Below are positions 40,016 through 55,619 of a stretch of DNA of 64,000 bases, piece after piece. The stretch is from contig JAQBQP010000001.1 of the NCBI GenBank assembly GCA_028286905.1, positions 15,114 to 79,113 on the forward strand, in the 5' to 3' direction. A program made the position numbers and the translations under genes. Numbering within the stretch: the first letter of the stretch is position 1; every line of letters begins with the position of its first letter. The notes beneath the pieces were generated by a model. That model was not told the DNA's origin, did not search any database, and was given only the letters and a program-made list of their open reading frames with translations. The DNA comes from Candidatus Doudnabacteria bacterium (GTDB taxonomy: Bacteria > Patescibacteriota > Doudnabacteria > UBA920 > VMFF01).

Positions 40016-41497
40016 ATGAATTTTACCGACTTCTTAAGCAAAATACAATACAAATTTACCGATGAAGAGGAGCAGTTGCTTCAAAAGGCTTTTGATTTTG
40101 CTAAAAAAGCGCATGCCGGCCAAATTCGGTTTTCTGGCGAAGACTACTTTGAACATCCAGTTGAAGCAGCCATAATTTTGGCAGATATTTTACCAAGCGC
40201 ACCAACTGTTGCTGCTACCCTGCTGCACGATGTTCCCGAAGATACCAAAATTACTTTAGATGAAATTCGCAAAGAGTTTGGTGAAGAAATTGCCAGCTTA
40301 GTAGACGGCGTGACAAAACTTGGCAAAGTCCGTTTGAGGAATAGCAAAGACCAGTATTATGTAGAGAACCTCCGTAAAATGTTTATTGCTACCTCAAAAG
40401 ATATTCGGGTAATTTTGATTAAGCTTGCCGACCGCTTGCACAACATGCGTACTTTGCAATTCGTTCGAAAAGAAAAGCAAAAAAGAATTGCTGAAGAAAC
40501 TTTGGAAATTTTCGCTCCAATTGCTAGCAGGCTGGGCATTGGAGAATGGAAAGATGAACTTGAAGATCTTTCTTTCCAAATTGTTTTTCCAGAAGAATTT
40601 AAAAAAACCGAAGCGCTTTTAAAGAATGCTTTGCATGGCCGAGACAAAGCTTTAAAGAAATTGCAAAAAAATGTTGCCGAAATCCTTCGGACCGAAGGAG
40701 TGAAGTTTGAAGATTTGCAGGGACGCGTAAAGCGCGTTTATTCTCTGCATAAAAAACTTGATAAGTACGGCGGGGACATTCACAAAATTTACGATCTTGT
40801 TGCCTTAAGAGTTATTACCAAATCTACGGTGGATTGCTATTCAGCCCTTGGTGCAATTCATAAACACTTGCAGCTGCTGCCCGGCCGAGTTAAAGATTTT
40901 ATCGCGCTGCCAAAGTCGAATGGCTACAAGAGCATTCACACCACCGTTTTTGATAACCATAAAAACATTTTCGAAATCCAGATTCGCACCGAACAAATGC
41001 ATGACGAAGCCGAAAAAGGTATTGCCGCACACTGGTATTATGAAGAGGGCGACAAAGCTGATAAACTGCAAAAGATGCGCGTCCAATGGGTCCAGGATTT
41101 GCACGACATGCAAAACCAAATGAACAACCCGGAAGAATTTCTAAACGCTCTGAAAATTGATTTCTTTCAAAAAAGAATTTTCGTCTTAACTCCTAAGGGC
41201 GACGTCCGTGATTTGCCAGAAGGCGCAACGCCAATTGATTTTGCTTTTTCAATTCATTCGAACCTTGGCTTTTATATGCAAGGCGTTAAAGTAAATGGCA
41301 AAATGGTTAAAATTGATCACGCTTTAAAGAGCGGCGATGTCGTGGAAATTATCAAATCAAAAAAGCCAGTCACTATTTCTAATGACTGGCTGAAGCAGGC
41401 AAAAACTTCCAACGCCCGCTCTAAAATTCGACATTATTTAGAAGAGCATCAGACCGGAATCTTTAACTCTTTAAAGAAACTGATTAACCGTAAATAA
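40016..41497 (+). CDS. RelA/SpoT-homolog (p)ppGpp synthetase/hydrolase, short form (HD + synthetase + TGS, no ACT domain)
   Basis: 493 aa. HD motif region, RelA_SpoT synthetase core, TGS (PKGDVRDLPEGATPIDFA). Confidence 0.8.
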   Translation: MNFTDFLSKIQYKFTDEEEQLLQKAFDFAKKAHAGQIRFSGEDYFEHPVEAAIILADILPSAPTVAATLLHDVPEDTKITLDEIRKEFGEEIASLVDGVTKLGKVRLRNSKDQYYVENLRKMFIATSKDIRVILIKLADRLHNMRTLQFVRKEKQKRIAEETLEIFAPIASRLGIGEWKDELEDLSFQIVFPEEFKKTEALLKNALHGRDKALKKLQKNVAEILRTEGVKFEDLQGRVKRVYSLHKKLDKYGGDIHKIYDLVALRVITKSTVDCYSALGAIHKHLQLLPGRVKDFIALPKSNGYKSIHTTVFDNHKNIFEIQIRTEQMHDEAEKGIAAHWYYEEGDKADKLQKMRVQWVQDLHDMQNQMNNPEEFLNALKIDFFQKRIFVLTPKGDVRDLPEGATPIDFAFSIHSNLGFYMQGVKVNGKMVKIDHALKSGDVVEIIKSKKPVTISNDWLKQAKTSNARSKIRHYLEEHQTGIFNSLKKLINRK

Positions 41498-41498
41498 T

Positions 41499-41993
41499 TT
41501 AGTAAGCGATAGTGTGCTTAGTATAATCTGGCTTGTGGTCTAACAATTCTTCGTCTTTGAACCAGACCTTAATCTCCTGTCCGGCTTCTTCTACGTTTCC
41601 AGAAGCGTGGATCAAATTATTAATGCCAATGTTCTTGCTATCCGCATGTTTAAATGAAACATGGGAGTAGTCGCCACGAATTGTTCCTGGCGCTGCCGAC
41701 TTTGGTTCGGTGGTGCCGACTAATTTGCGAACTAACTCTACTGCTTCGACTCCTTCTAAAACAATTGCAACCACAGGCGCGGTAGAAAGCATTTCGACCA
41801 TCATTTTGCGAACATGTTCGCCACGTCGAATCGAAATATCTTCAGTGTAGTGCTTCATTGCCATTTCTTCATCAGCTTGAACCATTTTCAAGCCAGCAAT
41901 CTTCATGCCAACTTTTTCAAATCTCTGAATTATCTCGCCGATCAAGCCGCGATTAATTGCATCTGGTTTCAACAATATAAGTGTGCGTTCCAT
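41499..41993 (-). CDS. ndk: nucleoside diphosphate kinase
   Basis: 164 aa. NLIHASGNVEEA (NxxHGSD). Confidence 0.9.
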   Translation of the reverse strand: MERTLILLKPDAINRGLIGEIIQRFEKVGMKIAGLKMVQADEEMAMKHYTEDISIRRGEHVRKMMVEMLSTAPVVAIVLEGVEAVELVRKLVGTTEPKSAAPGTIRGDYSHVSFKHADSKNIGINNLIHASGNVEEAGQEIKVWFKDEELLDHKPDYTKHTIAY

Positions 41994-42006
41994 AATTTCC
42001 TTTAAG

Positions 42007-42804
42007 TTATTTTACAGTTGTTACTGTCGCCTTGTTAATTACAATTGGAGTTTTTGGCGAACCATCGTCTGGACCAACCACAGGGTCGATCGGTACAGAA
42101 CCAATTTTATCAACCACATCCATTCCGGCAATTACTTTGCCGAAGATCGTATAGTTGTGTGGAATATCAACATCGGAGATCATTATAAAGAATTGCGAAC
42201 CATTTGTATTTGGGCCGGCATTAGCCATTGCTAATGTTCCTTTTACATAACCAGCTTTGTAAGATGGAGTATTTGGGTTAAGCTCGTCTTCAAACTTACC
42301 GCCATAAACACTTTCACCGCCGGAACCGGTGCCAGTTGGATCCCCTGCTTGAATTACGAAGCCATGCGCAACGCGATGGAATTTAACATTATTGTAATAA
42401 CCTTTTTCTGATAAACAAACAAAGTTCTGCACGGTCTTTGGTGCGTCTTTATCAAACATCTGTAGTTGAATCTTGCCCATTGTTGTATCAAGAGTTACAA
42501 CTTTGTTGGAGATATCTACACTTGGTTTGAAATTGCCATTGGCATCTTTTTGAGAAGCGTCTGAGCAGGCTGCTGTAGCATCAGTCATATTTTTATCTCC
42601 TGTATTAGTTGTCGAATTAGTATTGGTATTCGTTTCGGCTGAAGTGTTGTTTGCGGAGGACTGCTCGGAAGTTTGGCTTGTCTGGTTATTAGTCTGCGCT
42701 GGAGCAGGACTATCTGCTGTTTTATGCTTCACAGAATAAATAATTATTCCACCACCGAGGAATATAATAAGTCCGATCAAAGCATAAATAAATTTTGAAT
42801 TCAT
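42007..42804 (-). CDS. cyclophilin-type peptidyl-prolyl cis-trans isomerase, membrane-anchored with an N/T/S-rich linker
   Basis: 265 aa. FHRV..GFVIQAGDP...G cyclophilin core. Confidence 0.8.
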   Translation of the reverse strand: MNSKFIYALIGLIIFLGGGIIIYSVKHKTADSPAPAQTNNQTSQTSEQSSANNTSAETNTNTNSTTNTGDKNMTDATAACSDASQKDANGNFKPSVDISNKVVTLDTTMGKIQLQMFDKDAPKTVQNFVCLSEKGYYNNVKFHRVAHGFVIQAGDPTGTGSGGESVYGGKFEDELNPNTPSYKAGYVKGTLAMANAGPNTNGSQFFIMISDVDIPHNYTIFGKVIAGMDVVDKIGSVPIDPVVGPDDGSPKTPIVINKATVTTVK

Positions 42805-44123
42805 ATTTGATTATTAATGTTAGGCCTTCTTGCTATCTTTTGTTCACTTCGGCATTTTATCAGATAAAGGACAATTTCTGCAATGTAAATCCCAACTAGC
42901 TGAACTGCAGTTATTTTTGCATAAATAACAGAGTATTTAAACTGCGCCAGGCCATAAACTATCAAGAATAGATAGTTTAAAATTGCCAATAAAATCTTTG
43001 CAAATACTATTTTTAACACTGGCAGACACAGAAAATAACTTAAAGCTAAGATCGGCTCCAACAAAGGTAGAACTAAAAGATTTGCCGGCAAAGCAATTAA
43101 AGACAACTCCTTAAAATAATAAATGGTAATTGGCACAGTTACCAGCTGTGCTGAAATAGTAGTACACAGAATATCTTTAAATAAAAAATAATTTGGGACT
43201 TTATTAAATACTTTTTGTAATATGGGCACAAAATAAATGATACCAAAGATTGAGCTAAAAGAAAGCATAAAACCGATATCGTATTTTATAATCAATGGGT
43301 TTTGAACTACTAATATTACAGCAGTAAACAATAGTGCCGGCAGCATCCGATATTGCCTGCCGTTTATTTTTGCGATCGTGAACATTCCAGACATGATTGC
43401 GGCGCGAACGATTCCGGTAGAAAAATTAGACATCACTAAATAAATAGTTGCAGTGATTATGCAAATCAAATAGGTTTTGTTCCTGCCGATATATTTTGCT
43501 AAACCGGACAAGATAATCATCATCAATGTTAAAACGTATCCGGACAAAGCAATTAAATGCGACGTTCCAGTTGCTCGGAAAGCTTGAATATCGGCATCTG
43601 GCATCTGATCCTTTTGCCCAACTACGATCGCAATCAGCAGCGCGGCTTGTTCCCGAGGCAGTAACGCTTCAAACTTTTCAAAAACAAAATGCTTAACTAC
43701 TAAAGCGTAGTAAATAATTGGGTTTAGTTTGGACTTCCCTACTACAAATACATCCGGATCGCTTATTTGAGCATAAATATTTTTAGTTTGTAAATTTCTA
43801 ATATAATCAAAGTCGTCAAAATTCTTAGGCTGCTTTATTTTCCCAATTAAATATATTTTATCGCCATAATTAAATTTGCTTCTTCCAAAAACGGTTACCT
43901 GAATTTTTTGACTGTATTGAACGGTGGGGATTATTTCGAAGCGCTGGCTGTGCACATGGTAAATTTCCGGATCCGAAACAATATATCCATCAATAATAAC
44001 TTTCTGATCAAAGTAGTTTTGATATTGGTTCGGTTTATCGCCGAGCTGAAACCAATTAACACCGGACCAGATCGCAAATAGAAAAAGAATTAAAAATAAA
44101 ATAAAAATGCTAGACTTGTTCAT
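42801..44123 (-). CDS. comEC: ComEC/Rec2-family DNA-uptake channel protein (lacks the C-terminal metallo-beta-lactamase domain)
   Basis: 440 aa. N-terminal TM, OB-fold DUF4131-like region with FDDFDYIRNL (cf. the ComEC FDY..YL motif), then a polytopic competence domain. Confidence 0.6.
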   Translation of the reverse strand: MNKSSIFILFLILFLFAIWSGVNWFQLGDKPNQYQNYFDQKVIIDGYIVSDPEIYHVHSQRFEIIPTVQYSQKIQVTVFGRSKFNYGDKIYLIGKIKQPKNFDDFDYIRNLQTKNIYAQISDPDVFVVGKSKLNPIIYYALVVKHFVFEKFEALLPREQAALLIAIVVGQKDQMPDADIQAFRATGTSHLIALSGYVLTLMMIILSGLAKYIGRNKTYLICIITATIYLVMSNFSTGIVRAAIMSGMFTIAKINGRQYRMLPALLFTAVILVVQNPLIIKYDIGFMLSFSSIFGIIYFVPILQKVFNKVPNYFLFKDILCTTISAQLVTVPITIYYFKELSLIALPANLLVLPLLEPILALSYFLCLPVLKIVFAKILLAILNYLFLIVYGLAQFKYSVIYAKITAVQLVGIYIAEIVLYLIKCRSEQKIARRPNINNQI

Positions 44124-44177
44124 TAAACAACTCTAGCATTCCAAGATTAAAAGTTTTTAAACTAAGGTTAATACTTA

Positions 44178-45854
44178 CTAAAACGCGTCCATCGCATCAA
44201 TCTTTACCCGTTCTGCAATTATTTTCCCTTTTGGAATTGGGAAAGTTACGGTAAAGGTTGTGCCTTGGTTTACTCCTGGACTATCAAATGAAATTGTTCC
44301 GCCGTGTGATTCCACAATTTTCTTAACGACGTAAATACCAAGCCCGGTGCCTTCACGAGTCAATTCATTTGCCGCAGTTGTTCTAAAGAATTTTTCAAAT
44401 AATTTAGATTTTTCGGCAGGGTCAACGCCAATACCTGTATCTTTAACGGAGAATTGCAGCATCTCTCCAACCTTCATTAAAGTTAGAGTAACGCCGCCCT
44501 TCGGGGTATATTTAATAGAATTATCGATTAGGTTAATGATTACCTGGCGAAGCTTTTCAGCATCGGCGCGGATTTCCGGACAAGACCGATTAATATTGTC
44601 GAAGTATAAATATAAACCTTTGTCTTTTGCCTTCTGCGAAATTTCTGTAATAACGCTCTCAATAATTTCACAAACATTCACTGCGTCAAAATCAAATTCC
44701 ATTCTGCCCGATTCAATTCGAGACAGATCCAATAAATCGCCGACCAATACTGCCAAGCGTTGCGCGGAGTCAAAAATAATCTGAACGCTATCTTTTTGGG
44801 TTTTCTCTACTGGTCCAAAGTCGCCGGACAAGATCATCGAAGCATACCCTTTGATCGCGGTTAGCGGGGTGCGCAATTGGTGCGAAGCCACCGAAAGGAA
44901 TTCAGACTTCGCTTTATCAACTTCCTTCAATTGGATATTTGCAGTCTTTAATTGACCAGACAACAGCTCTAGCTCTTGCCTTTGCTTTGCTTCTTGCTGG
45001 ACGCTTCGAATTAACAATATTCCAACCAAAAGCAGGGTAAAAAATATAAAGACTCTGAAGATTAAATCGTAAATTCCTTTTGAAGTAATAATTTCAAATA
45101 AATTTACAACGATCAGCACCAGAACCAAAACTTCGGTAGAAAAGATTTTTATATTAAACAAACCATGTTTCAATATAGAATAACCCGTAAAAAACACAAA
45201 CGGCAAAATAAATATCGCGCCAAAAGGAATAAAATCAGTTTGGTTAAAAATGGCTGGCAAAATGAGATTAAAACAAATTATCGCCAAGAACATTAAAACC
45301 GTACCCCAGGTGAAATAACGCAGCTGCAAGCGCTCTGCTTTTGGGGTTTTTAAAATTCTTCTAACCAAATAAAATAACCCGGCAGCCACTAGGCTGACTG
45401 CAAATATTCCAAACACTGCAATGCCCATTCCCGGAATGAAAACCGGCGTACCGCTCTGATTAAGCCCATCTATTACTTTAACTACGTAGGGCGACAAAGT
45501 TAGCAAAGAAACCAAAACAACCGCTGGAGTCAAATATCTAACAATCCATTTTGGCAAAGTTATTTTATCTTCAGGGAAAATATAACTGAGCAAAAAAAAT
45601 GTAAAGGCTTGCCAGACCGCAAAAAATAAAACTAACCTGGTTAACCACAGCAGCCAAACAGGGCTTGAGAACTGGTAGGACAGATAATTTACAATTCCCC
45701 ATCCAGAGCTAACTAGTGTAAATGCGAAAAATGTTTTACCAGTAGCGCTATTTCTGTTTTCAAAATAAATTTTATATCCCAACAGAACACTAGCAGCGAT
45801 AGCTATTCCAACTGACAACAAATCTAAGTTCTGCCCAATGTCTAATGAGATCAT
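44178..45854 (-). CDS. sensor histidine kinase (polytopic N-terminus, HisKA + HATPase_c)
   Basis: 558 aa. H-box SHQLRTPLTAIKGY, plus N, G1 and G2 boxes. No adjacent response regulator. Confidence 0.8.
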   Translation of the reverse strand: MISLDIGQNLDLLSVGIAIAASVLLGYKIYFENRNSATGKTFFAFTLVSSGWGIVNYLSYQFSSPVWLLWLTRLVLFFAVWQAFTFFLLSYIFPEDKITLPKWIVRYLTPAVVLVSLLTLSPYVVKVIDGLNQSGTPVFIPGMGIAVFGIFAVSLVAAGLFYLVRRILKTPKAERLQLRYFTWGTVLMFLAIICFNLILPAIFNQTDFIPFGAIFILPFVFFTGYSILKHGLFNIKIFSTEVLVLVLIVVNLFEIITSKGIYDLIFRVFIFFTLLLVGILLIRSVQQEAKQRQELELLSGQLKTANIQLKEVDKAKSEFLSVASHQLRTPLTAIKGYASMILSGDFGPVEKTQKDSVQIIFDSAQRLAVLVGDLLDLSRIESGRMEFDFDAVNVCEIIESVITEISQKAKDKGLYLYFDNINRSCPEIRADAEKLRQVIINLIDNSIKYTPKGGVTLTLMKVGEMLQFSVKDTGIGVDPAEKSKLFEKFFRTTAANELTREGTGLGIYVVKKIVESHGGTISFDSPGVNQGTTFTVTFPIPKGKIIAERVKIDAMDAF

Positions 45855-45893
45855 GCTAATATTATACCCGTTAATAGCTGAATAGCTAAATTT

Positions 45894-47057
45894 TTACAGT
45901 CCCATCATCTTGAGATAGCCTTTTCTCTTTTTATCTCTCTTTTGAACTTGCGATTTGCTTTCAAAAAAAGGCACAAATATAGAATCGAGATTAACCTCAT
46001 ATCGACCCGATTTCAAATCTTCTTTTAAAATTACTTTGCGCGCCAAATATGTCAGTACCGCGCCGCATAAAGTAGCAGCGTTACCAAGCTGCGGCCAGGA
46101 GTAAATGGTTCTGCCAACTTGCATAACCGATTCAATCATTTTTAGGTCGGCAATATTTGCGCCGGCCATCTTTGCGATCGTCCGTGGCAAGTCTTGCGGC
46201 TGAACATGTTTAACGTCTTCTGGAGTCATTTTCCCCAAAATTCCATGCAAAATTGGAGTTTTTTTGTTTAGGTCAAAGCGTTCAATGTCAACAATAATGC
46301 TATCCGCGTTGTCCGCAGCCATAATTATCGGGACGCCATGCGGCTTAGCAATATATCGGGTCTTTAGTTTTAAGTAAGGATTGTCCATTTCTTCGACAAT
46401 CAAATCTAGCTTTGGCGAAAGTATAAATTTTTCAATGTTCGCATCGCTAACCCCTTCAGCAAACAACTCAATTTCTGCATAAGGATTAATTTCCATGATC
46501 TGTCTAGCAACAACGATCATTTTTCCAGTCCCAACATTCTGAAAGCCAGTTCTAATTCGATTTAAGTTTGAGCCGGAAATTATATCTGGATCTGCAAGCT
46601 TAATATGCTTCGCTCCCCCGGTCATAACTATGGTCAGGGCAACGTGGCTACCAACACTCATACCCATGATTCCAACGTTGGAATTGTAAAATCTTTTTTG
46701 CTCATCTTCGTTAATTAAAAAACGGTTTCTTCCGGTGCGTAAATGAAAATGCAAGTCTTCAGGCAAAAAATGGATTACCTGGTTCAACCATGGATAATAA
46801 AACCAATTTCCGGCATGTACAGGATCTTTACCCTTAAAATGTTTATCTAAAAACTTTTGAAAATGAGCCTGATAATCTTTGTTAAAACGATATTCGGGAT
46901 TTTGCAAAAGAAAAGCTTCCTCTGTTAAATCAGCATACTGATCAATTATCCCGACGCCCTTTTTTTGATAAGAATTTAATTCTTTTACAAGTTGGTCTTT
47001 TTTAAGCTTAATCGGTTTCCAAGATTCCCGATCCACTTTTTCTTTTAGGGTTTTCAT
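45894..47057 (-). CDS. ThiF/MoeB/E1-like adenylyltransferase-fold protein with ~110-aa N-terminal and ~140-aa C-terminal extensions
   Basis: 387 aa. VGIMGMSVGSHVALTIVMTGG (GxGxxG Rossmann) and DPDIISGSNLNRI (D-x-D...SNLNRQ-type motif). Confidence 0.6.
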   Translation of the reverse strand: MKTLKEKVDRESWKPIKLKKDQLVKELNSYQKKGVGIIDQYADLTEEAFLLQNPEYRFNKDYQAHFQKFLDKHFKGKDPVHAGNWFYYPWLNQVIHFLPEDLHFHLRTGRNRFLINEDEQKRFYNSNVGIMGMSVGSHVALTIVMTGGAKHIKLADPDIISGSNLNRIRTGFQNVGTGKMIVVARQIMEINPYAEIELFAEGVSDANIEKFILSPKLDLIVEEMDNPYLKLKTRYIAKPHGVPIIMAADNADSIIVDIERFDLNKKTPILHGILGKMTPEDVKHVQPQDLPRTIAKMAGANIADLKMIESVMQVGRTIYSWPQLGNAATLCGAVLTYLARKVILKEDLKSGRYEVNLDSIFVPFFESKSQVQKRDKKRKGYLKMMGL

Positions 47058-47060
47058 ATA

Positions 47061-48575
47061 TTACCTCTTTACCCATTTTTGCTTACCACCTTGGTTAAAA
47101 AATGGTGCGCTTTCATGGGAAATTAGATTAATTTTAGTTTTACGTTTACTTTCTGGAAGTGAGCCATAAGAGTTTTTGAACTCTGAATTCTTTTCCAACA
47201 AAACTGCTAATATCCTCTTCCTTAGCTTCTCAAGCAATTGTTTAGATTTTTTTGTTTTGTTCTTTAATTCAGTATGCACTTCAAGAACTGGGTTATAATT
47301 TTTATCTTCCGATACCTCCACTACAAATTTTCCGCTTAAATGCGATGCGACGCTTTTGTGTTGATGCGCCTCTTTTAAATGTTCTGGGTAAACATTTGCA
47401 CCATACCAAGTAACAACCATATCGCTACGCTCATAAACATAGACGAACGGTAAGTTCCAAATTGTGTCTGCTATTCCCTGCTTTTTTGCTTCTTGGTCCA
47501 AATTAGGAATAACCTTGCGCATATCTTTTAGGCTAACGATTCCTCCGCGATCTTTTAAATCATAGCGGACTAACGGGATACCGCTATCTGCCGAACATAC
47601 TAGATTTCCTGCCAGATCCTCAAAGTAAAACATCTCGGGAATATATTGAGTTAAAGTAGGCAGCCGATGAATCTGGCCGAAAATATTTTTGTAGATCTCT
47701 TTATTTTTTACTGCAATTCTTCTAATTAAAATAGAGACTGGGGTTTCGTATGACATCGTGCCCAAATCTACTGTGCCGTAATGGTTCAGAGTATCTAAGT
47801 AGATATTTTTTAAACCGGTTTTGGAAGCAATGTAATCACGGAATGATTCGCTAAAGCCTTCTGCGGAAAAAACAAGTTTTAAATTAATTTTTTTCCAATT
47901 TAACCCTTGCACAATCCCTTCATCAACGACGTCCTTTAAAAATGGAGGATAAGCGCCAATAATTATTTGATCGTATTCATTTCCAAACTTGCGCACCGCT
48001 TTGATAATTTCGTTTTTATTTACCCCGGTGGTTAGTACACTTAACGCATAATTGCCATTTTGAGTAATATTTTTTAAAGCCTGATAAGTGAATAAGCCGC
48101 CGATCCAAGGCCCCATTGCAAAAGCATCAATATATAAAGTTGTTTTTTTGTGGATTTGAAAATTGGTTCGCAAATACATTTCCGCGGTAAATGCATATTG
48201 CTGGTCCTGCTGATCCGTTCTAGGAAAATAAAATGGTTCGCCGGTTGTTCCAGAGGTTGAAGAAAACACCCAAGGTTGCGAAGCAAATTTGCCGTCCCAA
48301 CATAGCTCAGCCAAAGGATAAGCTTTTAAATAATTTTGCTTATCAATTAAAGGAACTTTTTTAAAGTCCGTAATAGTTTTTATTTTTGAAGGATCAATTT
48401 TATGTTTCTTCAAAAACTTTTTATAAGCGGGCACTCTTTTTGCCATCCGATGAAATAATTCTAGCGCAGCCGCTTCTCCGGCATTGGCCCAATGCGCTTC
48501 TGGCTTGGAACTCAAATCGGAAATAGTTTTTATTGGGTCGTTAAGCATAAATTTTAGTAAATTGTTTTTCTGCAA
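47061..48575 (-). CDS. adenylate-forming enzyme, PaaK / coenzyme F390 synthetase-like
   Basis: 504 aa. SSTSGTTGEPFYFPRT adenylation P-loop. Size and layout of the phenylacetate-CoA ligase family. Confidence 0.55.
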   Translation of the reverse strand: MQKNNLLKFMLNDPIKTISDLSSKPEAHWANAGEAAALELFHRMAKRVPAYKKFLKKHKIDPSKIKTITDFKKVPLIDKQNYLKAYPLAELCWDGKFASQPWVFSSTSGTTGEPFYFPRTDQQDQQYAFTAEMYLRTNFQIHKKTTLYIDAFAMGPWIGGLFTYQALKNITQNGNYALSVLTTGVNKNEIIKAVRKFGNEYDQIIIGAYPPFLKDVVDEGIVQGLNWKKINLKLVFSAEGFSESFRDYIASKTGLKNIYLDTLNHYGTVDLGTMSYETPVSILIRRIAVKNKEIYKNIFGQIHRLPTLTQYIPEMFYFEDLAGNLVCSADSGIPLVRYDLKDRGGIVSLKDMRKVIPNLDQEAKKQGIADTIWNLPFVYVYERSDMVVTWYGANVYPEHLKEAHQHKSVASHLSGKFVVEVSEDKNYNPVLEVHTELKNKTKKSKQLLEKLRKRILAVLLEKNSEFKNSYGSLPESKRKTKINLISHESAPFFNQGGKQKWVKR

Positions 48576-49578
48576 TTTGGTTGGTTACTCGATAGTGTGA
48601 AATTTTCTGGTCCTTTGCAGTTTTCAAAACTTCAAGGCAGGTCTTTTTTAAATCTGATATTCTTTGCATTACTCGCTCTTTATTGTAACCGCCCGGCTCG
48701 AGCTCATCAGCAACATCAATCAAACCTCCGGCATTGGCCAAGTAATCTGGAATGCAAATATATCCCGCTTCAAAAAAACGATCGCCTACTTCTGGGCTTT
48801 GCAACTGATTATTTGCAGTACCGCAAATAATTTTGGCCTTTATTTTTCCTAGTTGCCCTTCGCTTAAATCATCGCCCATCGCACAAGGCGCAAAGATTGT
48901 CGCCGAAATTGAATTAATTTCTTCAACCGGCACAATTTTTATGCTCGGCAAGAATTTTTTAGCATGTTCGGCCACTGCTGGATTTATGTCTGCCCCCACA
49001 ACCACCGCTCCTTCATTAGTTAGAAACCTTGCCAATTCTAAACCAGTTTTACCCAAACCTTTAATAGCCACAGTTACTCGATTTAAATTCGGAGTACCGT
49101 TTACAAAATTTAAAGTTGTTTGAATGCAATAAAAAACTCCCAAGGCAGCATAGGGCGCAGAGTCACCAGCTTTATTTGCTGTGCCTATAAAATAATTACT
49201 GTGCTGCTGCAAAAACGAAAGATCTTTCTGATACATTCCAACATCTTCACCGGTAAAAAAACTGCCTTTGAGCTTATTAACTTCTTCAGCGTACGCCTTT
49301 AACCAAGCGTCATTTTTCACTTCCGGTCTGCCGATTAACACCGCCTTACCACCCCCGTGCGGTAGCTTAGCAATTGCACACTTATAGGTCATCGTTCTGG
49401 CAAGGCGCATTGCATCCTGCAGTGCTTCTTCTTCAGTAGCATAATCGTAAACCCTGGTTGCACCTAATGCCGAGCCAGGTTTAGTTGTATGGATCGCTAT
49501 AAACCCTTTCAAGCCTACATCTGGCCGATCAATTTTGACAATCTGTTCGTAATCTTCAACTTTTAATTTCTTTGACAT
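48541..49578 (-). CDS. Leu/Phe/Val-type amino-acid dehydrogenase (Glu/Leu/Phe/Val DH family, short form)
   Basis: 345 aa. KLPHGGGKAV catalytic-lysine motif, plus a GxGxxG dinucleotide fold. Confidence 0.7.
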   Translation of the reverse strand: MSKKLKVEDYEQIVKIDRPDVGLKGFIAIHTTKPGSALGATRVYDYATEEEALQDAMRLARTMTYKCAIAKLPHGGGKAVLIGRPEVKNDAWLKAYAEEVNKLKGSFFTGEDVGMYQKDLSFLQQHSNYFIGTANKAGDSAPYAALGVFYCIQTTLNFVNGTPNLNRVTVAIKGLGKTGLELARFLTNEGAVVVGADINPAVAEHAKKFLPSIKIVPVEEINSISATIFAPCAMGDDLSEGQLGKIKAKIICGTANNQLQSPEVGDRFFEAGYICIPDYLANAGGLIDVADELEPGGYNKERVMQRISDLKKTCLEVLKTAKDQKISHYRVTNQIAEKQFTKIYA

Positions 49579-49596
49579 TTTGTTACCTTAACAATT

Positions 49597-50595
49597 TTAT
49601 TTAAGCACTTTTTCAATATTCAATCGCGGAGCAAACTTTGCTGTTTTATTTGTATATCCTAAACGTAAAAACATTTGCGGCCTTGTATCAAGGTTTAGAA
49701 CTTTTTGGATATCTTTATAAAATTCTCCTACTTCAATTGGAGCGCCTAGCGGTGATATTTTCACATTCTCTTTTTCTGCCATCAAAGCAATTCTTTCAAA
49801 GACCCTACCAGTATTAACCCAACTTTCTTTATTATCCTCAGCACTGCTAAGAATTACAAAGGCCGGAGTTTTATTTAATAAAACAGTGTCCATTTTCTTT
49901 TGCTGCTTGCCCATTTTGCTATTCTTCAAAATTTTTGGAAAAACTAAAGACAATAAAAAAGGCATCCCTAAAGTGTAGCCGGGCATGCCATCATCATATC
50001 TATTAAGACTCGGCCTGACCCAAGCAGACAGCTCGTTTCTAAAACTTTGATCATCCAAAGCTACTTCGGCTGCACTAGCTACAATCTCTGTGATTTGTTT
50101 CTTCTGAGATTCTGCTATTACAAAATTAACTTGGACCATCGGATCGAGGTTTTTCAGCTTATCTAAGAAATTTTGGTCCGGAATTCTAGGTTCAAAAGGA
50201 AAACGATTGCTTTGACGGGTCAAAATATATTTTACCAAACTAGAGTCTTTTGGAGTTGCTGTCCTAAAATTAAAAATGCTAACAAGATTAGAGTCATTCA
50301 AATTTAAAGGATCGCTACTTACCTCGAAACCAAAGTGTTCTGCCGCAATTATCAAATTCTCAATTGCCGCTCCAATACTCAAATACATTTGTCTTCGCGT
50401 CGGATCGGAATAAGATAACTCCCTGCTTGGATTAATGTAAAGCTCAATCTTGTCTGAAACAATTTTAAAAAGCCATGGTTGAGTGTTATGACTGGATGGT
50501 GCAAGCGCGGCAAATTTAATTAAATGTTTTAACTTTTCTGCTGAGCTTAGACCTGCGAAATATTTCAAATCTAAACTTGGATTTTCCGGACGCAT
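49597..50595 (-). CDS. nitroreductase-superfamily protein, two-domain (Acg-like) form
   Basis: 332 aa. APSSHNTQPW signature near the N-terminus, with a second nitroreductase-like half. Confidence 0.55.
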   Translation of the reverse strand: MRPENPSLDLKYFAGLSSAEKLKHLIKFAALAPSSHNTQPWLFKIVSDKIELYINPSRELSYSDPTRRQMYLSIGAAIENLIIAAEHFGFEVSSDPLNLNDSNLVSIFNFRTATPKDSSLVKYILTRQSNRFPFEPRIPDQNFLDKLKNLDPMVQVNFVIAESQKKQITEIVASAAEVALDDQSFRNELSAWVRPSLNRYDDGMPGYTLGMPFLLSLVFPKILKNSKMGKQQKKMDTVLLNKTPAFVILSSAEDNKESWVNTGRVFERIALMAEKENVKISPLGAPIEVGEFYKDIQKVLNLDTRPQMFLRLGYTNKTAKFAPRLNIEKVLK

Positions 50596-50658
50596 TTATT
50601 TTTGTTTTATTTTCATTAAGGCCTGTTTATAAGGATATTATACCATACTCAGTACGAT

Positions 50659-51987
50659 TTATGACCTCAACAGTTTTTTAACCTGCTTCACTAAATCTTT
50701 AGCTTTTAATTCGACTTGCTTTCTGGTTTTCAAGTCCCGTACAGTGACTTGCCCTTTTTTCTTTTCATTTTCGCCAAACAATATAGCGTAAGGGATAGAT
50801 TTAGCTTCCGCAAAAGTAAACTGCTTTTTCATATCCGCTTGCTGATAGTAAACTTCGGAGTTAATCCCAGCGGCACGAAGTTCGGTAACAATATTTATGT
50901 AGTCTGCTTCCAATTCTTTATTCATATTTAAGATCAGAACATCAACGACATTCTGCTTATCAACCAAATTCAATTCAAGCATTGCGCTAAACAAACGATC
51001 GATACCGATTGAGATACCAACTGCAGGGATATCCTTGCCAGTAAATAAATTAATTAATTTATCATAACGTCCCCCGCCAGCTACAGAACTAAAGCTTCCT
51101 TCTTTGCTCTTTTCTAAAATTGCCGCTTCAAAAATAGTTGAAGTATAATAATCCATCCCTCTAGCTAAGGCCAAATCAATTTCCAGATTTTTAACACCCA
51201 TCTCCTTAAGGACCATAAAAACTTTATTCAACTCTTCAAAACCTTGCTGGCCTTGCGGCTGCTTCAAAATATATTTATTCATAAATACTTTCAACGCACC
51301 GACATCAGGAACTTTTGTTGAGGTTAATCTGATCAATCCTTCTGCTTCATTGACAGTCATGCCAATTTTTTCTTGCAGTTCAGCAGAAACAGCCTTGGCG
51401 CCAATCTTATCTATTTTATCGATTGCCCGAATCGCCACAACAATTTTATCAGCAGGAACTTTGGCAGTCAGCATTATTGCATTCAATATTTTGCGATTGC
51501 TAATTTTAATCTTAAATTTCTTAATACCGAGTTCTCTTATAATTTGCTCGGCGATGGCGATACATTCGGCATCTGCAATACCTACCTCTGCTCCAACAAC
51601 ATCAGCATCACATTGATAAAATTCCCGGTACCGGCCACGTTGGGTATTTTCTGCACGCCAAACCGGCGCAATCTGGTAGCGTTTAAAAAACTTTGGTAAT
51701 TCATTTGAATACTGTGCGACAACGCGTGCCAAAGGAACAGTAAGGTCATAGCGCATTGCAACTTTACGATCGCCATTATCTTTAAAGCGATACATTAACA
51801 TTTCGCCTTCTTCGCCATACTTTCCGGTTAAAACATCTTCATGTTCAAGTACTGGAGTATCAAGCGGCTCAAAGCCAAAACGTTCAAATACTAGTTTGAT
51901 CTTTTCAAGCATTCGGGCACGAACGATCTGATCTTTCGGTAGATAATCTCTAAAGCCCTTTAAATTGCGCGGTTCTATTAATTTCAT
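50659..51987 (-). CDS. hisS: histidine--tRNA ligase
   Basis: 442 aa. Class II motifs and N-terminal RNLKGFRDYLP. Confidence 0.9.
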   Translation of the reverse strand: MKLIEPRNLKGFRDYLPKDQIVRARMLEKIKLVFERFGFEPLDTPVLEHEDVLTGKYGEEGEMLMYRFKDNGDRKVAMRYDLTVPLARVVAQYSNELPKFFKRYQIAPVWRAENTQRGRYREFYQCDADVVGAEVGIADAECIAIAEQIIRELGIKKFKIKISNRKILNAIMLTAKVPADKIVVAIRAIDKIDKIGAKAVSAELQEKIGMTVNEAEGLIRLTSTKVPDVGALKVFMNKYILKQPQGQQGFEELNKVFMVLKEMGVKNLEIDLALARGMDYYTSTIFEAAILEKSKEGSFSSVAGGGRYDKLINLFTGKDIPAVGISIGIDRLFSAMLELNLVDKQNVVDVLILNMNKELEADYINIVTELRAAGINSEVYYQQADMKKQFTFAEAKSIPYAILFGENEKKKGQVTVRDLKTRKQVELKAKDLVKQVKKLLRS

Positions 51988-52003
51988 ATGGTTATTTTAG
52001 CAT

Positions 52004-52048
52004 AAAAAGAAAAGAACCTCACTACACACCTGGAAGGTGTGAGCGAGG
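52004..52048 (-). terminator. terminator of the high-GC lipoprotein gene
   Basis: cctcactacacacc-tggaa-ggtgtgagcgagg hairpin, followed in minus orientation by ttcttttcttttt. Confidence 0.55.
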
Positions 52049-52066
52049 CTCTCTGCTTAGAACGTC

Positions 52067-52828
52067 TTAGTGCTTGATGCGGAGGTGCAGGGTGAACGGA
52101 CAGGTGCCGACACCGACGATCCGAACTCCATGAACCTCGTCAGATTCCAACGTGCCCCACGGTGACTCGCCCCAACTGATTTTGTTGGAGCTGAGGAATG
52201 TGATGTCGTGGAAGATCGTATCGCCCGGCGCACGTACAGTCGTGATCTGGGTTCCCCCGTAGGTTCCCGAAACATTCCGGGCCGTGAACGAGCCAGACTT
52301 GCTCTGGGCGTACAAGGTGTTGCCGAGGATCACATTTGGATTCGGGCTCATCCAGGCGGTATCGTTTGGAATAACGATGTCCGCACAACTGAAGTCACCG
52401 GAGTTCAAACGGAGCGTCGTACTCACCGTCGTGGTAACCACCGGGTTCGAGGATCGGGGATCGCCGGTCGCGGTGATCAAATAGGTAATGATCGACGGCG
52501 TGTTCAAGTTGAAGTCCGCCGGCGGAGCATTTGCCTGATTGACGACGATGCTGTCACAGCCGAAGACCTTCACGGAAATCGGCAGACTAGCGTCCCGACC
52601 CAGAGCATTAGACGGTGTCCGGTCAACCTTGCAGCTGAGGGCATTAGATGCCGCCAGCAGAATGGTCGTAGTCCGGTTCAGCGTCTCGAACTTCGGGGGT
52701 GGCGGAATGACGCCGAGCGTGGGGCTAGCAGGTGGAATGGGGTTCCCGGGCTGGGTAGTTTCGCCTCCCCCTCCACAAGAAACCACCAAGAGCGCTGAAG
52801 CCGCCATGGTGCAAAAAGACTTTCTCAT
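52067..52828 (-). CDS. lipoprotein, hypothetical, encoded in a high-GC island
   Basis: 253 aa from ATG 52828 (AAGGAGGG SD lies 4 nt upstream; the track's start at 52861 lacks an SD). Signal MRKSFCTMAASALLVVSC with lipobox. GC about 57%. The plus-strand ORFs 52208..52798 and others are antisense shadows. Confidence 0.5.
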   Translation of the reverse strand: MRKSFCTMAASALLVVSCGGGGETTQPGNPIPPASPTLGVIPPPPKFETLNRTTTILLAASNALSCKVDRTPSNALGRDASLPISVKVFGCDSIVVNQANAPPADFNLNTPSIITYLITATGDPRSSNPVVTTTVSTTLRLNSGDFSCADIVIPNDTAWMSPNPNVILGNTLYAQSKSGSFTARNVSGTYGGTQITTVRAPGDTIFHDITFLSSNKISWGESPWGTLESDEVHGVRIVGVGTCPFTLHLRIKH

Positions 52829-52998
52829 ACAGCCCTCCTTGGTGGCTGAAGTGTATCGCATTTACGGATCTGTGTATTTAGACCGCGTCGTACCTTATAT
52901 ATACGGTATTTGGCAGTAAATGTCAAGGGGCTGTTTATACAAATGCTGAGAAAGGATGTTACCTTTCCCCTTTTAAAACCGTAATATACACTATAAGC

Positions 52999-53529
52999 AT
53001 GACACAAATAGATGACCAGAGCTTCAACGAGCTTTATGATCTTTATATAACAAAGATCTATAACTTCATTTATTACCGGACTCATCATAAAGAAACCGCT
53101 GAGGACTTAACCAGTAAAACTTTTGTAAAAGCCTGGGAAAATCTAAGCAAGTTTGATGATGAAAAAGGTGCTTTTTCATCATGGATATATTCGATTGCCC
53201 GCAACAACTTAATTGATCATTATCGCAAAGAAAAAGGCACTTCTGATATTGACCAAATAATCAATTTTTCTTCTTCAGAGAACATTGAACACGACACTGG
53301 ACTTAAGCTGCAGCTAGAACAAGTTGAGAAATACCTTAAGGAACTTCCTGCGGACCAAAGAGACATTGTAATTATGCGAGTTTGGGATGACCTTTCTTAC
53401 AAAGAAATCGCGGCAATTCTTAAAAAAAGCGAAGCCAGTTGCAAAATGTCTTTTTATCGAACAATGCAAAAGGTTCAGACCCACTTTCCTATTGCCATAA
53501 CATTACTTTTATTAATTAAAGCTTTCTAA
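52999..53529 (+). CDS. ECF-type RNA polymerase sigma factor (sigma-70 family regions 2 and 4)
   Basis: 176 aa. DLTSKTFVKAW...WIYSIARN (region 2) and C-terminal HTH. Confidence 0.8.
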   Translation: MTQIDDQSFNELYDLYITKIYNFIYYRTHHKETAEDLTSKTFVKAWENLSKFDDEKGAFSSWIYSIARNNLIDHYRKEKGTSDIDQIINFSSSENIEHDTGLKLQLEQVEKYLKELPADQRDIVIMRVWDDLSYKEIAAILKKSEASCKMSFYRTMQKVQTHFPIAITLLLLIKAF

Positions 53530-53531
53530 TT

Positions 53532-55106
53532 ATGAACTTACAACTACAAAACTTATTGGAAGAGCTTTATACTCTTGACCCAACACTTCGAACCCGAGAA
53601 AAAGAACTAAAGCAAATCATCGAGGTTTTACTAAAGTCCAAACCAGATATTAAACTCGATCAGAATTTTCGAGAACGTTTGCGAATCGAATTACAAAATC
53701 ATCAACCAAAACAATCGGTATTTAATTCAATAAACCAAAATAAAATGAAAAAGTTTAATATCTACTTTGGATCAGCGCTATGCCTATTACTTATAGCTGG
53801 GGCAGTAGCGCTTCAAGCAAACAAAAATAAACAGCAGCTGCAATTAGCTAATGGGACAATGCTTGGCGAAGGAAAAATCATTCGCTTGGCAGATAACGCC
53901 TTTGGTTCTCTTAATAACCCCAGTGCTGGCACAGCAGCTAATACTCAGCCAGTAGCCGCTACTCCACTAGCAAAAAGCACCCTTCAGCAAGATGTTTCTA
54001 ATTCCACAGGTTCCGCTCCTTCTTTAAAACCAATGTCTCCGATGTCTTTAAGTACTCCAGCTTCGGTTCCGCCCGCGAACCCCTTACTGAGAATTTACCA
54101 ACCTACAGAGCTGCATTATATTTATGATGGCCCTGCCATCACAATCCCAAGCGATAAATTGGAAGTGCTAAAAAAGACCGCGCTTGACCTTACGAGTACT
54201 CAACTTAATGACTCTTTAAAAAACTTAAACCTTGGGTTAATTGATTTTGGCACTTTTAAGAATCTAAACGTAGATTCATTTACAGTTTCAGAAAAAGACG
54301 GTTATAGCATTACTGTTGATCCAAAAGCCGGCACTATCAATTTATATGCTCAGAACCAAAATTATGGCGGCGGGTGTGCCATCCCATTGGCAAGCCCAAT
54401 GGCCAGTGCTGGTACAAGCTCTAGCAGCAGTGCAAATGCAATAATACGTCCGTGCATGGAATCCCAAATAAAGATTTCGGATGTTCCGGACGATCAAACA
54501 CTTATTGATGCTGCAAACAAATTTATTGCTGATCATCATATAAGTTTAAAAAATTACGGAGCTCCTGAAGTGGTTTCTGATTGGAAAATTCAATATGAGC
54601 AATCTTCTGATAAAGCAACTTTCTATATACCAACCGCTGGGACTGTTCTGTATCCCGCTCAAATTAATGGCATTGGAGTATACGATCAAAATGGCAATAA
54701 AGTTGGCATGGGCGTTGCTTTAAACTTCGCAGATCAAAAAGTTACATCGATCTCTGAACTTAATCTTGGAAATTATCAGAGTTCTCTATACAGCACCGAG
54801 ACAGATATTTCAAAAATAATGGCTATAGTAGAAAAAGGCGGCACTGATACTTATTACCCGGCTGATGCTAATGCCAAAACCGAAGATGTTCAGCTAGGCT
54901 CTCCGAAGCTTCAATTAATGACTTATTGGGATTATCAAAATAATAATTCAACTGAGCTGTTTGTACCGGCATTAATTTTCCCGATTACCAAAGCTCCAGC
55001 GGATGTGCCTATTTATAAAAAGGCTGTCGTAGTTCCTATTATAAAAGACATTTTAAGCGCACTTCCACCCCCATATCAAATTATGTTACCGGGTATAAAA
55101 AAATAA
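53532..55106 (+). CDS. putative membrane-anchored anti-sigma factor with a large extracytoplasmic domain
   Basis: 524 aa. N-terminal cytoplasmic helix, single TM at ~85-105. Translationally coupled to the ECF sigma gene. Confidence 0.4.
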   Translation: MNLQLQNLLEELYTLDPTLRTREKELKQIIEVLLKSKPDIKLDQNFRERLRIELQNHQPKQSVFNSINQNKMKKFNIYFGSALCLLLIAGAVALQANKNKQQLQLANGTMLGEGKIIRLADNAFGSLNNPSAGTAANTQPVAATPLAKSTLQQDVSNSTGSAPSLKPMSPMSLSTPASVPPANPLLRIYQPTELHYIYDGPAITIPSDKLEVLKKTALDLTSTQLNDSLKNLNLGLIDFGTFKNLNVDSFTVSEKDGYSITVDPKAGTINLYAQNQNYGGGCAIPLASPMASAGTSSSSSANAIIRPCMESQIKISDVPDDQTLIDAANKFIADHHISLKNYGAPEVVSDWKIQYEQSSDKATFYIPTAGTVLYPAQINGIGVYDQNGNKVGMGVALNFADQKVTSISELNLGNYQSSLYSTETDISKIMAIVEKGGTDTYYPADANAKTEDVQLGSPKLQLMTYWDYQNNNSTELFVPALIFPITKAPADVPIYKKAVVVPIIKDILSALPPPYQIMLPGIKK

Positions 55107-55154: not shown

Positions 55155-55619
55155 TTATTTTTGTAAATAAGTTAAGGTTAGACTAGTTTTGCCATCGCTT
55201 TTTTTGTTTGCGACAACATTTACTTCAACGTTATCTTTTATCGCGTAAATGCTTTGGAGATTGGCACTGGTATGATTTTGATTTACAAGGTTATAGCCAT
55301 TGGTTTTAAAATAACTTTGATACAAACCATACAAATCCTTAGGGCTCATAGCGCTAATCAGATTAACTGTATATTGATTCTGCTTGCTGTAGTCCATGTT
55401 ATAGCTTTGATCTGGAGTAGCTTTTGAATCAAGTAACAATTCTCTTGGAAAGCCAACAATAACCTGACCAACTGGCGCATCAGTTTTCTTTGCTAAATCC
55501 TGACGAGCGAGAACGCCAGTATTTTGAGAATGTTTCTTTTGGTAAAGAACTATGCCAGTACCACCAACAATAACTACAGCTGCTAGTGTTATTAAAACAA
55601 TTTTTTGATTGCGATCCAT
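55155..55619 (-). CDS. membrane-anchored hypothetical protein (paralog of 57100..57555)
   Basis: 154 aa. N-terminal TM. C-terminal region aligns with the 151-aa paralog (PKDLYGLYQSYFKTNGY / PKELYDYYLNYVSKAGY). Confidence 0.35.
   Translation of the reverse strand: MDRNQKIVLITLAAVVIVGGTGIVLYQKKHSQNTGVLARQDLAKKTDAPVGQVIVGFPRELLLDSKATPDQSYNMDYSKQNQYTVNLISAMSPKDLYGLYQSYFKTNGYNLVNQNHTSANLQSIYAIKDNVEVNVVANKKSDGKTSLTLTYLQK

Follow-up and report, generated by a model that had tools for sequence, protein, structure and literature searches.

Oxazolone synthetases and a candidate operon of Doudnabacteria

According to a 2025 review, oxazolone formation is the only known chemistry of ThiF-like enzymes on a small molecule (PMC12596934). 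TrzS performs the ATP-dependent cyclisation and O2-dependent desaturation of N-acyl tryptophan to N-acyl tryptazolone (PMC12856293), and the split TyzB/TyzC and OxzB do likewise on N-acyl tyrosine (PMC10404671; bioRxiv 10.1101/2020.06.11.147165). Here we describe a candidate five-gene operon at positions 44178-50595 of a 64-kb window (the whole stretch of DNA that was analysed), which lies in a 248,627-bp contig of a Candidatus Doudnabacteria metagenome-assembled genome. The genes encode a flavin-dependent oxidase (FDO), an amino acid dehydrogenase (AADH), a PaaK-like ligase (PaaKL), a ThiF-like protein (ThiFL) and a membrane histidine kinase (HK). In our estimate the chances are about even that they constitute one operon, widespread in Patescibacteria (the Candidate Phyla Radiation, CPR), and that it specifies a small-molecule pathway of the oxazolone synthetase type, to which a sensor kinase of its own is coupled. 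Pathways of this type are known; new in the cluster are the proposed acyl supply route, the interchangeable FDO, and the dedicated sensor kinase conserved across the CPR. A literature search found no prior description of the Patescibacteria/CPR cluster.

The TrzAS system (Rv1356c/Rv1355c) of mycobacteria and Rhodococcus likewise combines a ThiF-like cyclase with an FDO of the nitroreductase superfamily (PMC12856293). The alignment of the window ThiFL with the Rv1355c model takes in the full N-terminal half, N-terminal extension included, and the adenylation aspartate is kept. However, the two domains are fused in TrzS and split in the window, and the window FDO is of the Acg type, not of the Rv1355c type. 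The window also lacks a TrzA-like acyl-CoA N-acyltransferase. AADH (or, in relatives, a lyase) and PaaKL stand in its place, and a kinase of the seven-transmembrane (7TM) type is added. In the TyzACB system (Rv2336-Rv2338c), TyzB (ThiF-like) and TyzC (FDO) are encoded by separate adjacent genes, as in this module, and the substrates are aromatic amino acids. On the other hand, in TyzACB and in OxzAB of Pseudoalteromonas rubra the acyl group comes from fatty acyl-CoA via TyzA or OxzA, no kinase is linked, and the hosts are Actinomycetota and Pseudomonadota.

A previous reading of the window, made from the sequence only, had pointed to the pairing of an E1-like protein with a nitroreductase-fold protein, which is indeed the key clue. 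The two proteins appear to be the two halves of an Rv1355c/TrzS-type enzyme. The systems that it named as nearest, the B and C components of thiazole/oxazole-modified microcins (TOMM) and MccB, have to be replaced by the oxazolone synthetase family (OxzB, TyzB/TyzC, TrzS = Rv1355c), which is nearer and acts on free N-acyl amino acids rather than on peptides.

The genes of the candidate operon, in the order of the minus strand, are as follows.

49597..50595, minus strand: FDO of the Acg type, 332 aa; first gene of the operon, a non-canonical position
48541..49578, minus strand: AADH of the Leu/Phe/Trp type, 345 aa, with the domains ELFV_dehydrog_N and ELFV_dehydrog
47061..48575, minus strand: PaaKL, a PaaK-fold adenylating ligase of the ANL superfamily, 504 aa, TTG start
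45894..47057, minus strand: ThiFL, a ThiF/E1-like, putatively ATP-dependent cyclase, 387 aa
44178..45854, minus strand: HK, a membrane sensor histidine kinase with the HisKA_7TM sensor, HisKA and HATPase_c domains (Pfam)

The open reading frames (ORFs) of all four enzymes were verified on the minus strand of the window, exactly where the sequence-only reading had placed them. Its domain calls (nitroreductase-like, amino acid dehydrogenase, PaaK-like, ThiF-like) agree with Pfam and NCBIfam searches and with AlphaFold models compared by Foldseek. One detail changes. In the public annotation of the identical protein, PaaKL starts at Met10 (position 48548; 495 aa). This is probably the true start, and the overlap with AADH is then 8 nt instead of the 35 nt assumed before. 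The intergenic distances in the order FDO, AADH, PaaKL, ThiFL, HK, calculated from the coordinates, are 18, −8, 3 and 39 nt. The GC content of the cluster is the same as that of its surroundings. Scanning of the region 41000-53500 for promoters and terminators was uninformative, with counts no different from those expected by shuffling; a single strong minus-strand terminator was located in this region (41391-41364), after the nucleoside diphosphate kinase gene (NDK).

Conservation of the gene cluster

A search seeded with an alignment of ThiFL homologs, with one genome per species, produced 62 loci. Nearly all of them carry labels of Patescibacteria lineages, namely Doudnabacteria, Magasanikbacteria, Saccharibacteria, Paceibacterota, Parcubacteria, Wildermuthbacteria, Kaiserbacteria, Harrisonbacteria, Nealsonbacteria and Liptonbacteria. 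At least 4 kb on each side of ThiFL are available in 38 of these loci, and in this well-flanked subset the following genes accompany ThiFL.

PaaK-like ligase: 37/38
FDO or ThiF-FDO fusion: 33/38
Histidine kinase: 33/38
AADH or aromatic ammonia-lyase: 29/38 (locus L038, scored as lacking both, has an AADH-PaaKL fusion)
Receiver-only response regulator: 17/38

The reciprocal search was made in metagenome contigs with an alignment of 11 sequences covering only the 7TM sensor region (kinase residues 1-290). The best 80 of 219 relatives were kept, and counts were made in the 55 loci whose contigs extend 5 kb or more upstream of the kinase. FDO is present upstream in 55/55 of them, ThiFL in 50/55, PaaKL in 48/55, and AADH or the lyase in 36/55. 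The linkage is seen both from ThiFL and from the kinase. The association of the genes far exceeds chance.

The related loci total 144, nearly all from Patescibacteria. PaaKL, ThiFL, FDO and HK occur together in 81 of them, 60 of which also have AADH or the lyase. The commonest order, AADH-PaaKL-ThiFL-FDO-HK (39/144 loci), matches the order of the pathway proposed below. Unbiased clustering of the ORFs from the 62 ThiFL-seeded loci and the window region added only two recurrent families, the receiver and the lyase. No family of acyl-CoA-dependent N-acyltransferases (OxzA/TyzA/TrzA) was seen in this clustering, nor is such an enzyme among the five genes of the operon.

Each adjacent pair of the canonical order exists as a single ORF in some locus.

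AADH-PaaKL fusion: L038, 856 aa
PaaKL-ThiFL fusion: L023, 889 aa
ThiFL-FDO fusion: L035, 743 aa, and L107, 732 aa
FDO-7TM kinase fusion: L143 and L144, 955 aa; two assemblies of one Doudnabacteria relative whose ThiFL is 82% identical to that of the window

The kinase moiety of the fusion protein in L143 shares 66% identity with the window HK. The ThiF-FDO fusion of L035, which stands in the same gene context, passes the NCBIfam cutoff of the Rv1355c family (NF005901; 534 bits, cutoff 476).

The cassette had been proposed to be a genuine functional unit, and the retention of the neighbourhood across CPR loci bears this out. Nor did the sequence models assign its genes to routine functions: none of the four enzymes reaches the cutoff of a housekeeping equivalog, and the scores for MoeB, ThiF, PaaK and ScyB are all much too low. 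The flanking genes for histidyl-tRNA synthetase (HisRS) and ComEC were considered as further members and rejected, as they are conserved only in the closest Doudnabacteria relatives.

Some loci contain additional ORFs between the core genes (L003:7669-8469, L041:7604-8416, L043:13728-14480, L039:12209-12928, L062:9042-9857, L048:12232-13146, L013:2618-3355 and L038:12169-13050). By Pfam, those of L003, L043 and L038 are two S-adenosylmethionine-dependent methyltransferases and one α/β-hydrolase; for the rest, the resemblance is one of sequence alone. These genes, which the window lacks, probably encode tailoring enzymes.

Several contigs (L035, L054, L057, L058, L062, L027, L022, L042, L004) are labelled as Gammaproteobacteria, Pseudomonadales, Polyangiaceae, Myxococcales, Planctomycetota or Chitinophagales, with clusters of the CPR type. 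Several contigs with non-CPR labels share flanks of the Magasanikbacteria type (TyrRS, ArgRS, bactofilin, DAGK-like). Such labels are probably binning or taxonomy errors.

The ThiF-like cyclase

The Pfam ThiF domain covers residues 111-290 of ThiFL, with extra sequence on both the N- and the C-terminal side. These extensions had seemed unusual for an E1-like protein. They are family features of Rv1355c-type cyclases, because the alignment to the Rv1355c family model NF005901 runs from residue 10 to residue 369 (model positions 8-347; 286 bits). By sequence, ThiFL appears to be a split equivalent of the N-terminal half of Rv1355c/TrzS. The full-length equivalog, a ThiF-FDO fusion that requires at least 476 bits, is not reached by the split window genes, which score 286 and 79 bits. 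The nucleotide loop G132MSVGS and the motifs S163NLNR and E222EMD225N are invariant among 22 homologs. D225 corresponds, at the motif level only, to the aspartate whose mutation (D217A) was used to disrupt the adenylation motif of TrzS (PMC12856293).

The AlphaFold (AF2) model of ThiFL (mean pLDDT, the per-residue confidence score, 88.2) consists of a core similar to ThiF, MoeB, TcdA and AclA and an N-terminal domain of about 100 residues. Its Foldseek neighbours are AclA, MccB, MoeB, PaaA, ThiF and TcdA. The closest protein both by solved structure and by sequence is AclA of Tenacibaculum discolor (PDB 9egb/9egc; sequence E 2.6e-6, Foldseek E 7e-13). The AclA structures were solved "in complex with substrate", and may bear directly on the chemistry of the ThiFL cyclase. 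Equivalog cutoffs of the sulfur-carrier enzymes are missed by ThiFL (ThiF 65 vs 159, MoeB 38 vs 266, TcdA 31 vs 304 bits), and no conserved small partner gene (ThiS/MoaD) is present. The ThiF/MoeB sulfur-carrier type was therefore rejected.

ThiFL has a single cysteine, C331 in the motif ATLCG, which is invariant across the 22 homologs; CxxC zinc motifs are absent. This residue might form a thioester intermediate, as has been proposed for TcdA.

The flavin-dependent oxidase

The FDO of the window matches Pfam Nitroreductase in two stretches and carries the motifs A32PSSHNTQPW and R127QSNR. It passes the cutoff of the Acg family FMN oxidoreductases (NCBIfam NF047509; 240 bits over residues 25-331, cutoff 199) and aligns end to end with the Acg structure 2ymv (MsAcg; E 8e-17). 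The match to the C-terminal half of the Rv1355c model (positions 371-653) has 79 bits. Acg proteins (Rv2032/Acg, Rv3131; MsAcg 2YMV) have the same architecture, a double nitroreductase in a single chain. However, the mycobacterial members are stand-alone genes of the dormancy regulon, whereas the window FDO is encoded inside a ThiF/PaaK/AADH operon. Its nearest relatives are at most 47% identical, and several of them appear to lie in the same clusters bearing ThiFL and PaaKL.

Of the FDOs in the loci, 104 resemble the Rv1355c type and 21 the Acg type. The arrangement of the window, in which an Acg-type FDO at the front takes the place of the canonical FDO, is rare. Three close relatives, L143, L145 and L146, share the window flanks (HisRS on one side, and ComEC, a peptidylprolyl isomerase (PPIase) and NDK on the other) and differ in the arrangement of FDO. 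In L145, whose ThiFL is 83% identical to that of the window, a canonical FDO of 353 aa lies between ThiFL and HK. In L143 (ThiFL 82% identical) the canonical FDO is fused to the kinase and is only 26% identical to the window FDO. In L146 (ThiFL 66% identical) an Acg-type FDO lies between HisRS and AADH, and there is no gene between ThiFL and HK, as in the window. Two FDO lineages appear to replace one another at one locus, which argues that the FDO function is required by the module. In most relatives FDO is adjacent to ThiFL, in L035 and L107 it is fused to it, and in the window it belongs to the same operon. The window FDO is a putative desaturase of the cyclised intermediate.

Supply of the acid

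AADH is similar to leucine dehydrogenase (LeuDH; 3vpx, 245 bits) and to tryptophan dehydrogenase (5b37, 232 bits). The ELFV dimerisation and NAD(P) domains are present, and the catalytic residues K66, K78 and D112 are retained. The ScyB equivalog is not reached (293 vs 600 bits). The position of LeuDH A113 is occupied by Gly in 31 of 31 AADHs from the clusters, and that of V291 by Leu, Ile or Met. In this pair the AADHs agree with the aligned tryptophan dehydrogenase 5B37 and differ from the aligned leucine dehydrogenases, which have Ala and Val. Phenylalanine dehydrogenase carries the pair of 5B37 as well (G124/L307). The pocket is predicted to be of the aromatic (Phe/Trp) type.

AADH is found in 66 and an aromatic ammonia-lyase in 13 of the 144 loci; no locus has both. 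The lyases form a family of aromatic amino acid lyases of about 530 aa with the motif that forms the 4-methylideneimidazole-5-one (MIO) group. Their best scores vary between the FlxA-type tyrosine ammonia-lyase, tyrosine aminomutase/histidine ammonia-lyase and phenylalanine ammonia-lyase. Judging by family membership, either enzyme could convert an aromatic amino acid to a carboxylic acid that lacks the α-amino group. Such acids are the kind of substrate taken by PaaK-fold ligases, so both enzymes may supply the acid for PaaKL.

The PaaK-fold ligase

PaaKL has no Pfam matches and only weak matches to PaaK and F390 synthetase. The match to the PaaK N-terminal domain has E 1e-13, and the PaaK equivalog TIGR02155 gives 50 bits in the N-terminal domain only (cutoff 646). 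The structural similarity is much clearer. The AF2 model (mean pLDDT 87.9) superimposes on PaaK1 (2y27) with E 2.5e-24 and a TM-score of 0.71 normalised by the query and 0.82 by the target. Further Foldseek matches are BT_0428, 2-hydroxyisobutyryl-CoA ligase (HCL) and the amide/ester ligase ClxA. The motifs T107SGTTGEP, R337YDLKD and G496GKQKW are conserved.

The two-domain ANL fold, the P-loop and the C-terminal Lys motif are common to PaaKL, PaaK1/2 (2Y27, 2Y4O), the benzoxazole enzymes ClxA/NatL2 and the flexirubin enzyme FlxY. On the other hand, the structure-based identity is 15-17%, and PaaKL exceeds PaaK in length by about 70 residues. PaaKL also has a weak match to FlxY, the ligase that is paired with the tyrosine ammonia-lyase FlxA, and some clusters show a parallel pairing of ligase and lyase.

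Direct formation of amide or ester bonds, without CoA, is known for PaaK-fold ligases such as ClxA and NatL2 (PMC9400959, PMC12519233). Because of this, and because the loci share no acyltransferase of the OxzA/TyzA/TrzA type, it is most economical to suppose that PaaKL itself would form the N-acyl amino acid. An alternative acceptor that has been considered is CoA rather than an amino acid.

The sensor kinase and the receiver

In the window HK, H325 is the phospho-acceptor, the G1 and G2 boxes are present, and residues 12-282 contain about eight hydrophobic segments. FDO and HK are adjacent in 87 pairs, separated by a median of 6 nt and overlapping in 28 cases, so that HK is the most tightly linked partner of FDO. 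Histidine kinase frequencies in the CPR are the lowest reported (PMC10805038), and for this reason a kinase so faithfully tied to a pathway deserves attention.

In many relatives a receiver-only protein of about 130 aa is encoded near the cluster, often divergently just upstream of AADH or just after the kinase. It has no DNA-binding domain. In the window itself no receiver domain was found in any of the six frames of the 64 kb, either with a hidden Markov model built from the loci or by phmmer with CheY. The kinase had been regarded as an orphan; this holds for the absence of a partner from the window, but the kinase is not a bystander, being the conserved fifth member of the module.

The arrangement recalls agrBDCA, in which one transcript covers the biosynthesis of a small cyclised molecule, a multi-pass membrane histidine kinase and a response regulator. 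However, the systems are not homologous; agr signals with a ribosomal peptide, and its regulator AgrA binds DNA, whereas the regulator of the cluster is receiver-only and not in the window.

Four clusters without a separate FDO have longer kinases of 712-773 aa (L054:6061-8301, L060:10840-13161, L061:701-2890, L062:11014-13152). They contain about 200 extra residues between the 7TM region and HisKA, and only the kinase core aligns with the window HK. This may be another sensor architecture, fitted to a non-desaturated product.

Proposed pathway

The following pathway can be suggested. AADH would deaminate an aromatic or bulky amino acid to the 2-oxo acid, which would serve as the acyl donor; in the relatives with an aromatic ammonia-lyase this donor would be an aryl-acrylic acid. 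PaaKL would adenylate this acid and couple it to a second amino acid through the amino group of the latter, replacing the acyl-CoA-dependent N-acyltransferase. ThiFL would then adenylate the carboxylate of the N-acyl amino acid and cyclise it to an oxazol-5(4H)-one, as do TrzS, TyzB and OxzB, and FDO would desaturate the ring substituent. Finally, the 7TM kinase would perceive the hydrophobic product or its formation, and would signal via the single-domain receiver that is a neighbour of the cluster in many relatives. The product may serve as a signal for the kinase. The sequence-only reading had guessed that the cassette activates and modifies an amino acid, a 2-oxo acid, or a peptide or protein C-terminus. 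The first part of this guess comes close to the pathway given here; the part about the C-terminus is disfavoured, as no small ORF is conserved in the window region 36000-60000 or in 142-143 related loci.

The sequence analysis establishes which domains are present, their homology to TrzS, the conservation of the catalytic motifs, the linkage in both directions and the fusions. What the enzymes take as substrates, that the ligase makes an amide, that an oxazolone results and that the kinase senses a ligand are inferences, and several points weigh against this scheme. Deamination, ligation and sensing are deduced from the gene context alone. The window FDO is of the Acg type, which has been placed in the group FDO-B, whereas the characterised oxazolone desaturases belong to FDO-A (subclusters A4, A8 and A23; PMC10404671). 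As no substrate is known for any Acg-type enzyme, its assignment depends on its position in the operon alone. The characterised FDOs require O2 (PMC10404671, PMC12856293), to which these organisms may or may not be exposed. Some of the lyases score best as aminomutase or histidine ammonia-lyase, so that deamination as the common step is insecure. PaaKL may be a plain CoA ligase, which would then need an acyltransferase, and none is conserved in the loci. The response regulator was not found in the 64 kb of the window, and the linkage of the kinase fits regulation of the operon by the kinase equally well as sensing of the product. Lastly, each type of fusion occurs in only one or two assemblies and may be an assembly artefact.

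Alternative explanations

The most serious alternative is that the enzymes act as proposed but the product is an effector rather than a signal (an antimicrobial, a molecule interacting with the membrane or the host, or a redox protectant), while the kinase senses an unrelated external cue and controls the operon or a downstream response. We consider this possible, though less probable than the scheme above. Linkage of the genes would be the same for product sensing and for regulation of the pathway, the tyz locus has been tied to oxidative stress (PMC10404671), antimicrobial N-acyl tyrosine derivatives exist in other bacteria, and the physiological role of oxazolones is still open (PMC12856293). 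However, the kinase is not a divergent regulator: its gene is downstream of the enzymes and apparently translationally coupled to them. The linked regulator consists of a receiver without a DNA-binding domain, so direct control of transcription is not obvious, and the FDO-kinase fusion suggests that the last enzyme is physically near the sensor. The tight junction of the two genes, together with their fusion in L143 and L144, could also mean that FDO is a flavin-based redox or O2 input for the kinase, the other three enzymes making a ligand or cofactor and the module reporting redox or O2 status instead of cell density or the presence of a host. Two non-orthologous FDO types fill the role, and the need of the characterised FDOs for O2 would agree with this. 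Such a sensor is nevertheless improbable, as three genes separate FDO from the kinase in the window and in L146, and the module is still kept. Moreover, in this sample ThiF-FDO fusions (L035, L107) are at least as frequent as the FDO-HK fusion, which ties FDO to catalysis after the cyclase, as in TrzS.

Modification of a peptide or protein C-terminus by the E1-like protein and the nitroreductase, in a ribosomally synthesised and post-translationally modified peptide (RiPP) pathway of the TOMM or MccB type or in ubiquitin-like or sulfur-carrier activation, is very improbable. The peptide-modifying enzymes MccB and PaaA are among the Foldseek neighbours of ThiFL, and its extra N-terminal domain could serve as a peptide clamp. 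But neither the window region 36000-60000 nor 142-143 related loci show a conserved ORF of 12-70 aa within the cluster or next to it. Candidate RiPP precursors were rejected, as no family of such ORFs extends over more than 9 loci and the large ones have the look of antisense shadows of conserved genes. No YcaO was found among the annotated ORFs of the window at 40016-60836, the part scanned, so that within these limits the earlier statement that YcaO and a precursor peptide are lacking holds. E2, JAB, ThiS and MoaD are absent from the cluster, as is YcaO. Scores with the ThiF, MoeB, TcdA and MccB types are 25-65 bits (25 bits for MccB), against 286 bits for the small-molecule Rv1355c family. 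An anti-phage E1/E2 system (Cap2-like) was rejected too: the PADLOC matches are weak (at most 38 bits) and limited to the Rossmann segment of ThiFL, and the other three enzymes have none. We give equally little credence to catabolism or salvage, in which deamination would be followed by AMP-forming CoA activation of an aryl acid for fermentation, ThiFL and FDO being unrelated housekeeping proteins. AADH with an acyl-CoA ligase formally begins amino acid degradation, and the JGI annotation of PaaKL is phenylacetate-CoA ligase. However, the enzymes and a dedicated kinase have stayed in one cluster throughout very divergent CPR lineages, a fusion exists for each neighbouring pair, the loci show no conserved enzymes for later catabolic steps, and the cutoffs of PaaK and of ThiF/MoeB/TcdA are widely missed.

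A separate 712-aa nitroreductase-YcaO fusion is encoded at L143:2498-4636 and also in L144 (Pfam Nitroreductase 141-312, YcaO 375-671). It precedes HisRS by about 1.5 kb and AADH by 2.8 kb, and has no counterpart at the syntenic position of the window. Its proximity is a point that could be made for the peptide pathway; in itself it is an instance of TOMM-like azoline/azole machinery in a CPR genome.

Other genes of the window

A sigma factor of the extracytoplasmic function (ECF) type is encoded at 52999-53529 (plus strand), directly followed by a 524-aa protein without a Pfam match at 53532-55106 (plus strand), possibly an anti-sigma factor. The pair is also present in L145. Further on, the genes of NrdR (55684-56301, minus strand), a 901-aa ribonucleotide reductase with a TSCPD domain (57652-60357, minus strand) and a BtuR/CobA-type corrinoid adenosyltransferase (60393-60836, minus strand) are clustered. 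This suggests that a B12-dependent ribonucleotide reductase is kept with adenosylation of its cofactor. The layout is syntenic in L145 and L146.

Four minus-strand ORFs of 151-264 aa (52067-52861, 55155-55619, 56316-57098 and 57100-57555) have no Pfam match. The first has no NCBIfam or PADLOC match either; at its position L145 has a 289-aa N6/N4 DNA methyltransferase.

Implications

Many CPR lineages keep this five-gene module despite minimal genomes with very little biosynthesis. If the proposed pathway is correct, oxazolone chemistry, so far found in Actinomycetota and Pseudomonadota, reaches the CPR, and there is a new route to N-acyl amino acids, by deamination and an ATP-dependent ligase instead of an acyl-CoA transferase. 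To our knowledge, CPR organisms lack fatty acid synthesis, and for that reason a ligase-based route would suit them. Acg-type FDOs, which are of interest in tuberculosis dormancy, would gain a defined pathway context. The physiological role of oxazolones, left open by the TrzS and Tyz papers, would become testable through a candidate receptor hard-wired to the pathway. The module could also give access to the ways in which CPR cells sense one another or their hosts.

A more tentative suggestion, which we think rather less than probable, is that the module is a self-contained chemical signalling system of the CPR. An amino-acid-derived, oxazolone-type autoinducer would be made without fatty acids or acyl-CoA, a 7TM kinase would be its receptor, and a CheY-like receiver would pass the signal on. 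A ligand would thereby be assigned to the HisKA_7TM sensor class for the first time, and an Acg-type FDO would have its first known biochemical role. The system could coordinate population behaviour or host-directed behaviour in these episymbionts.

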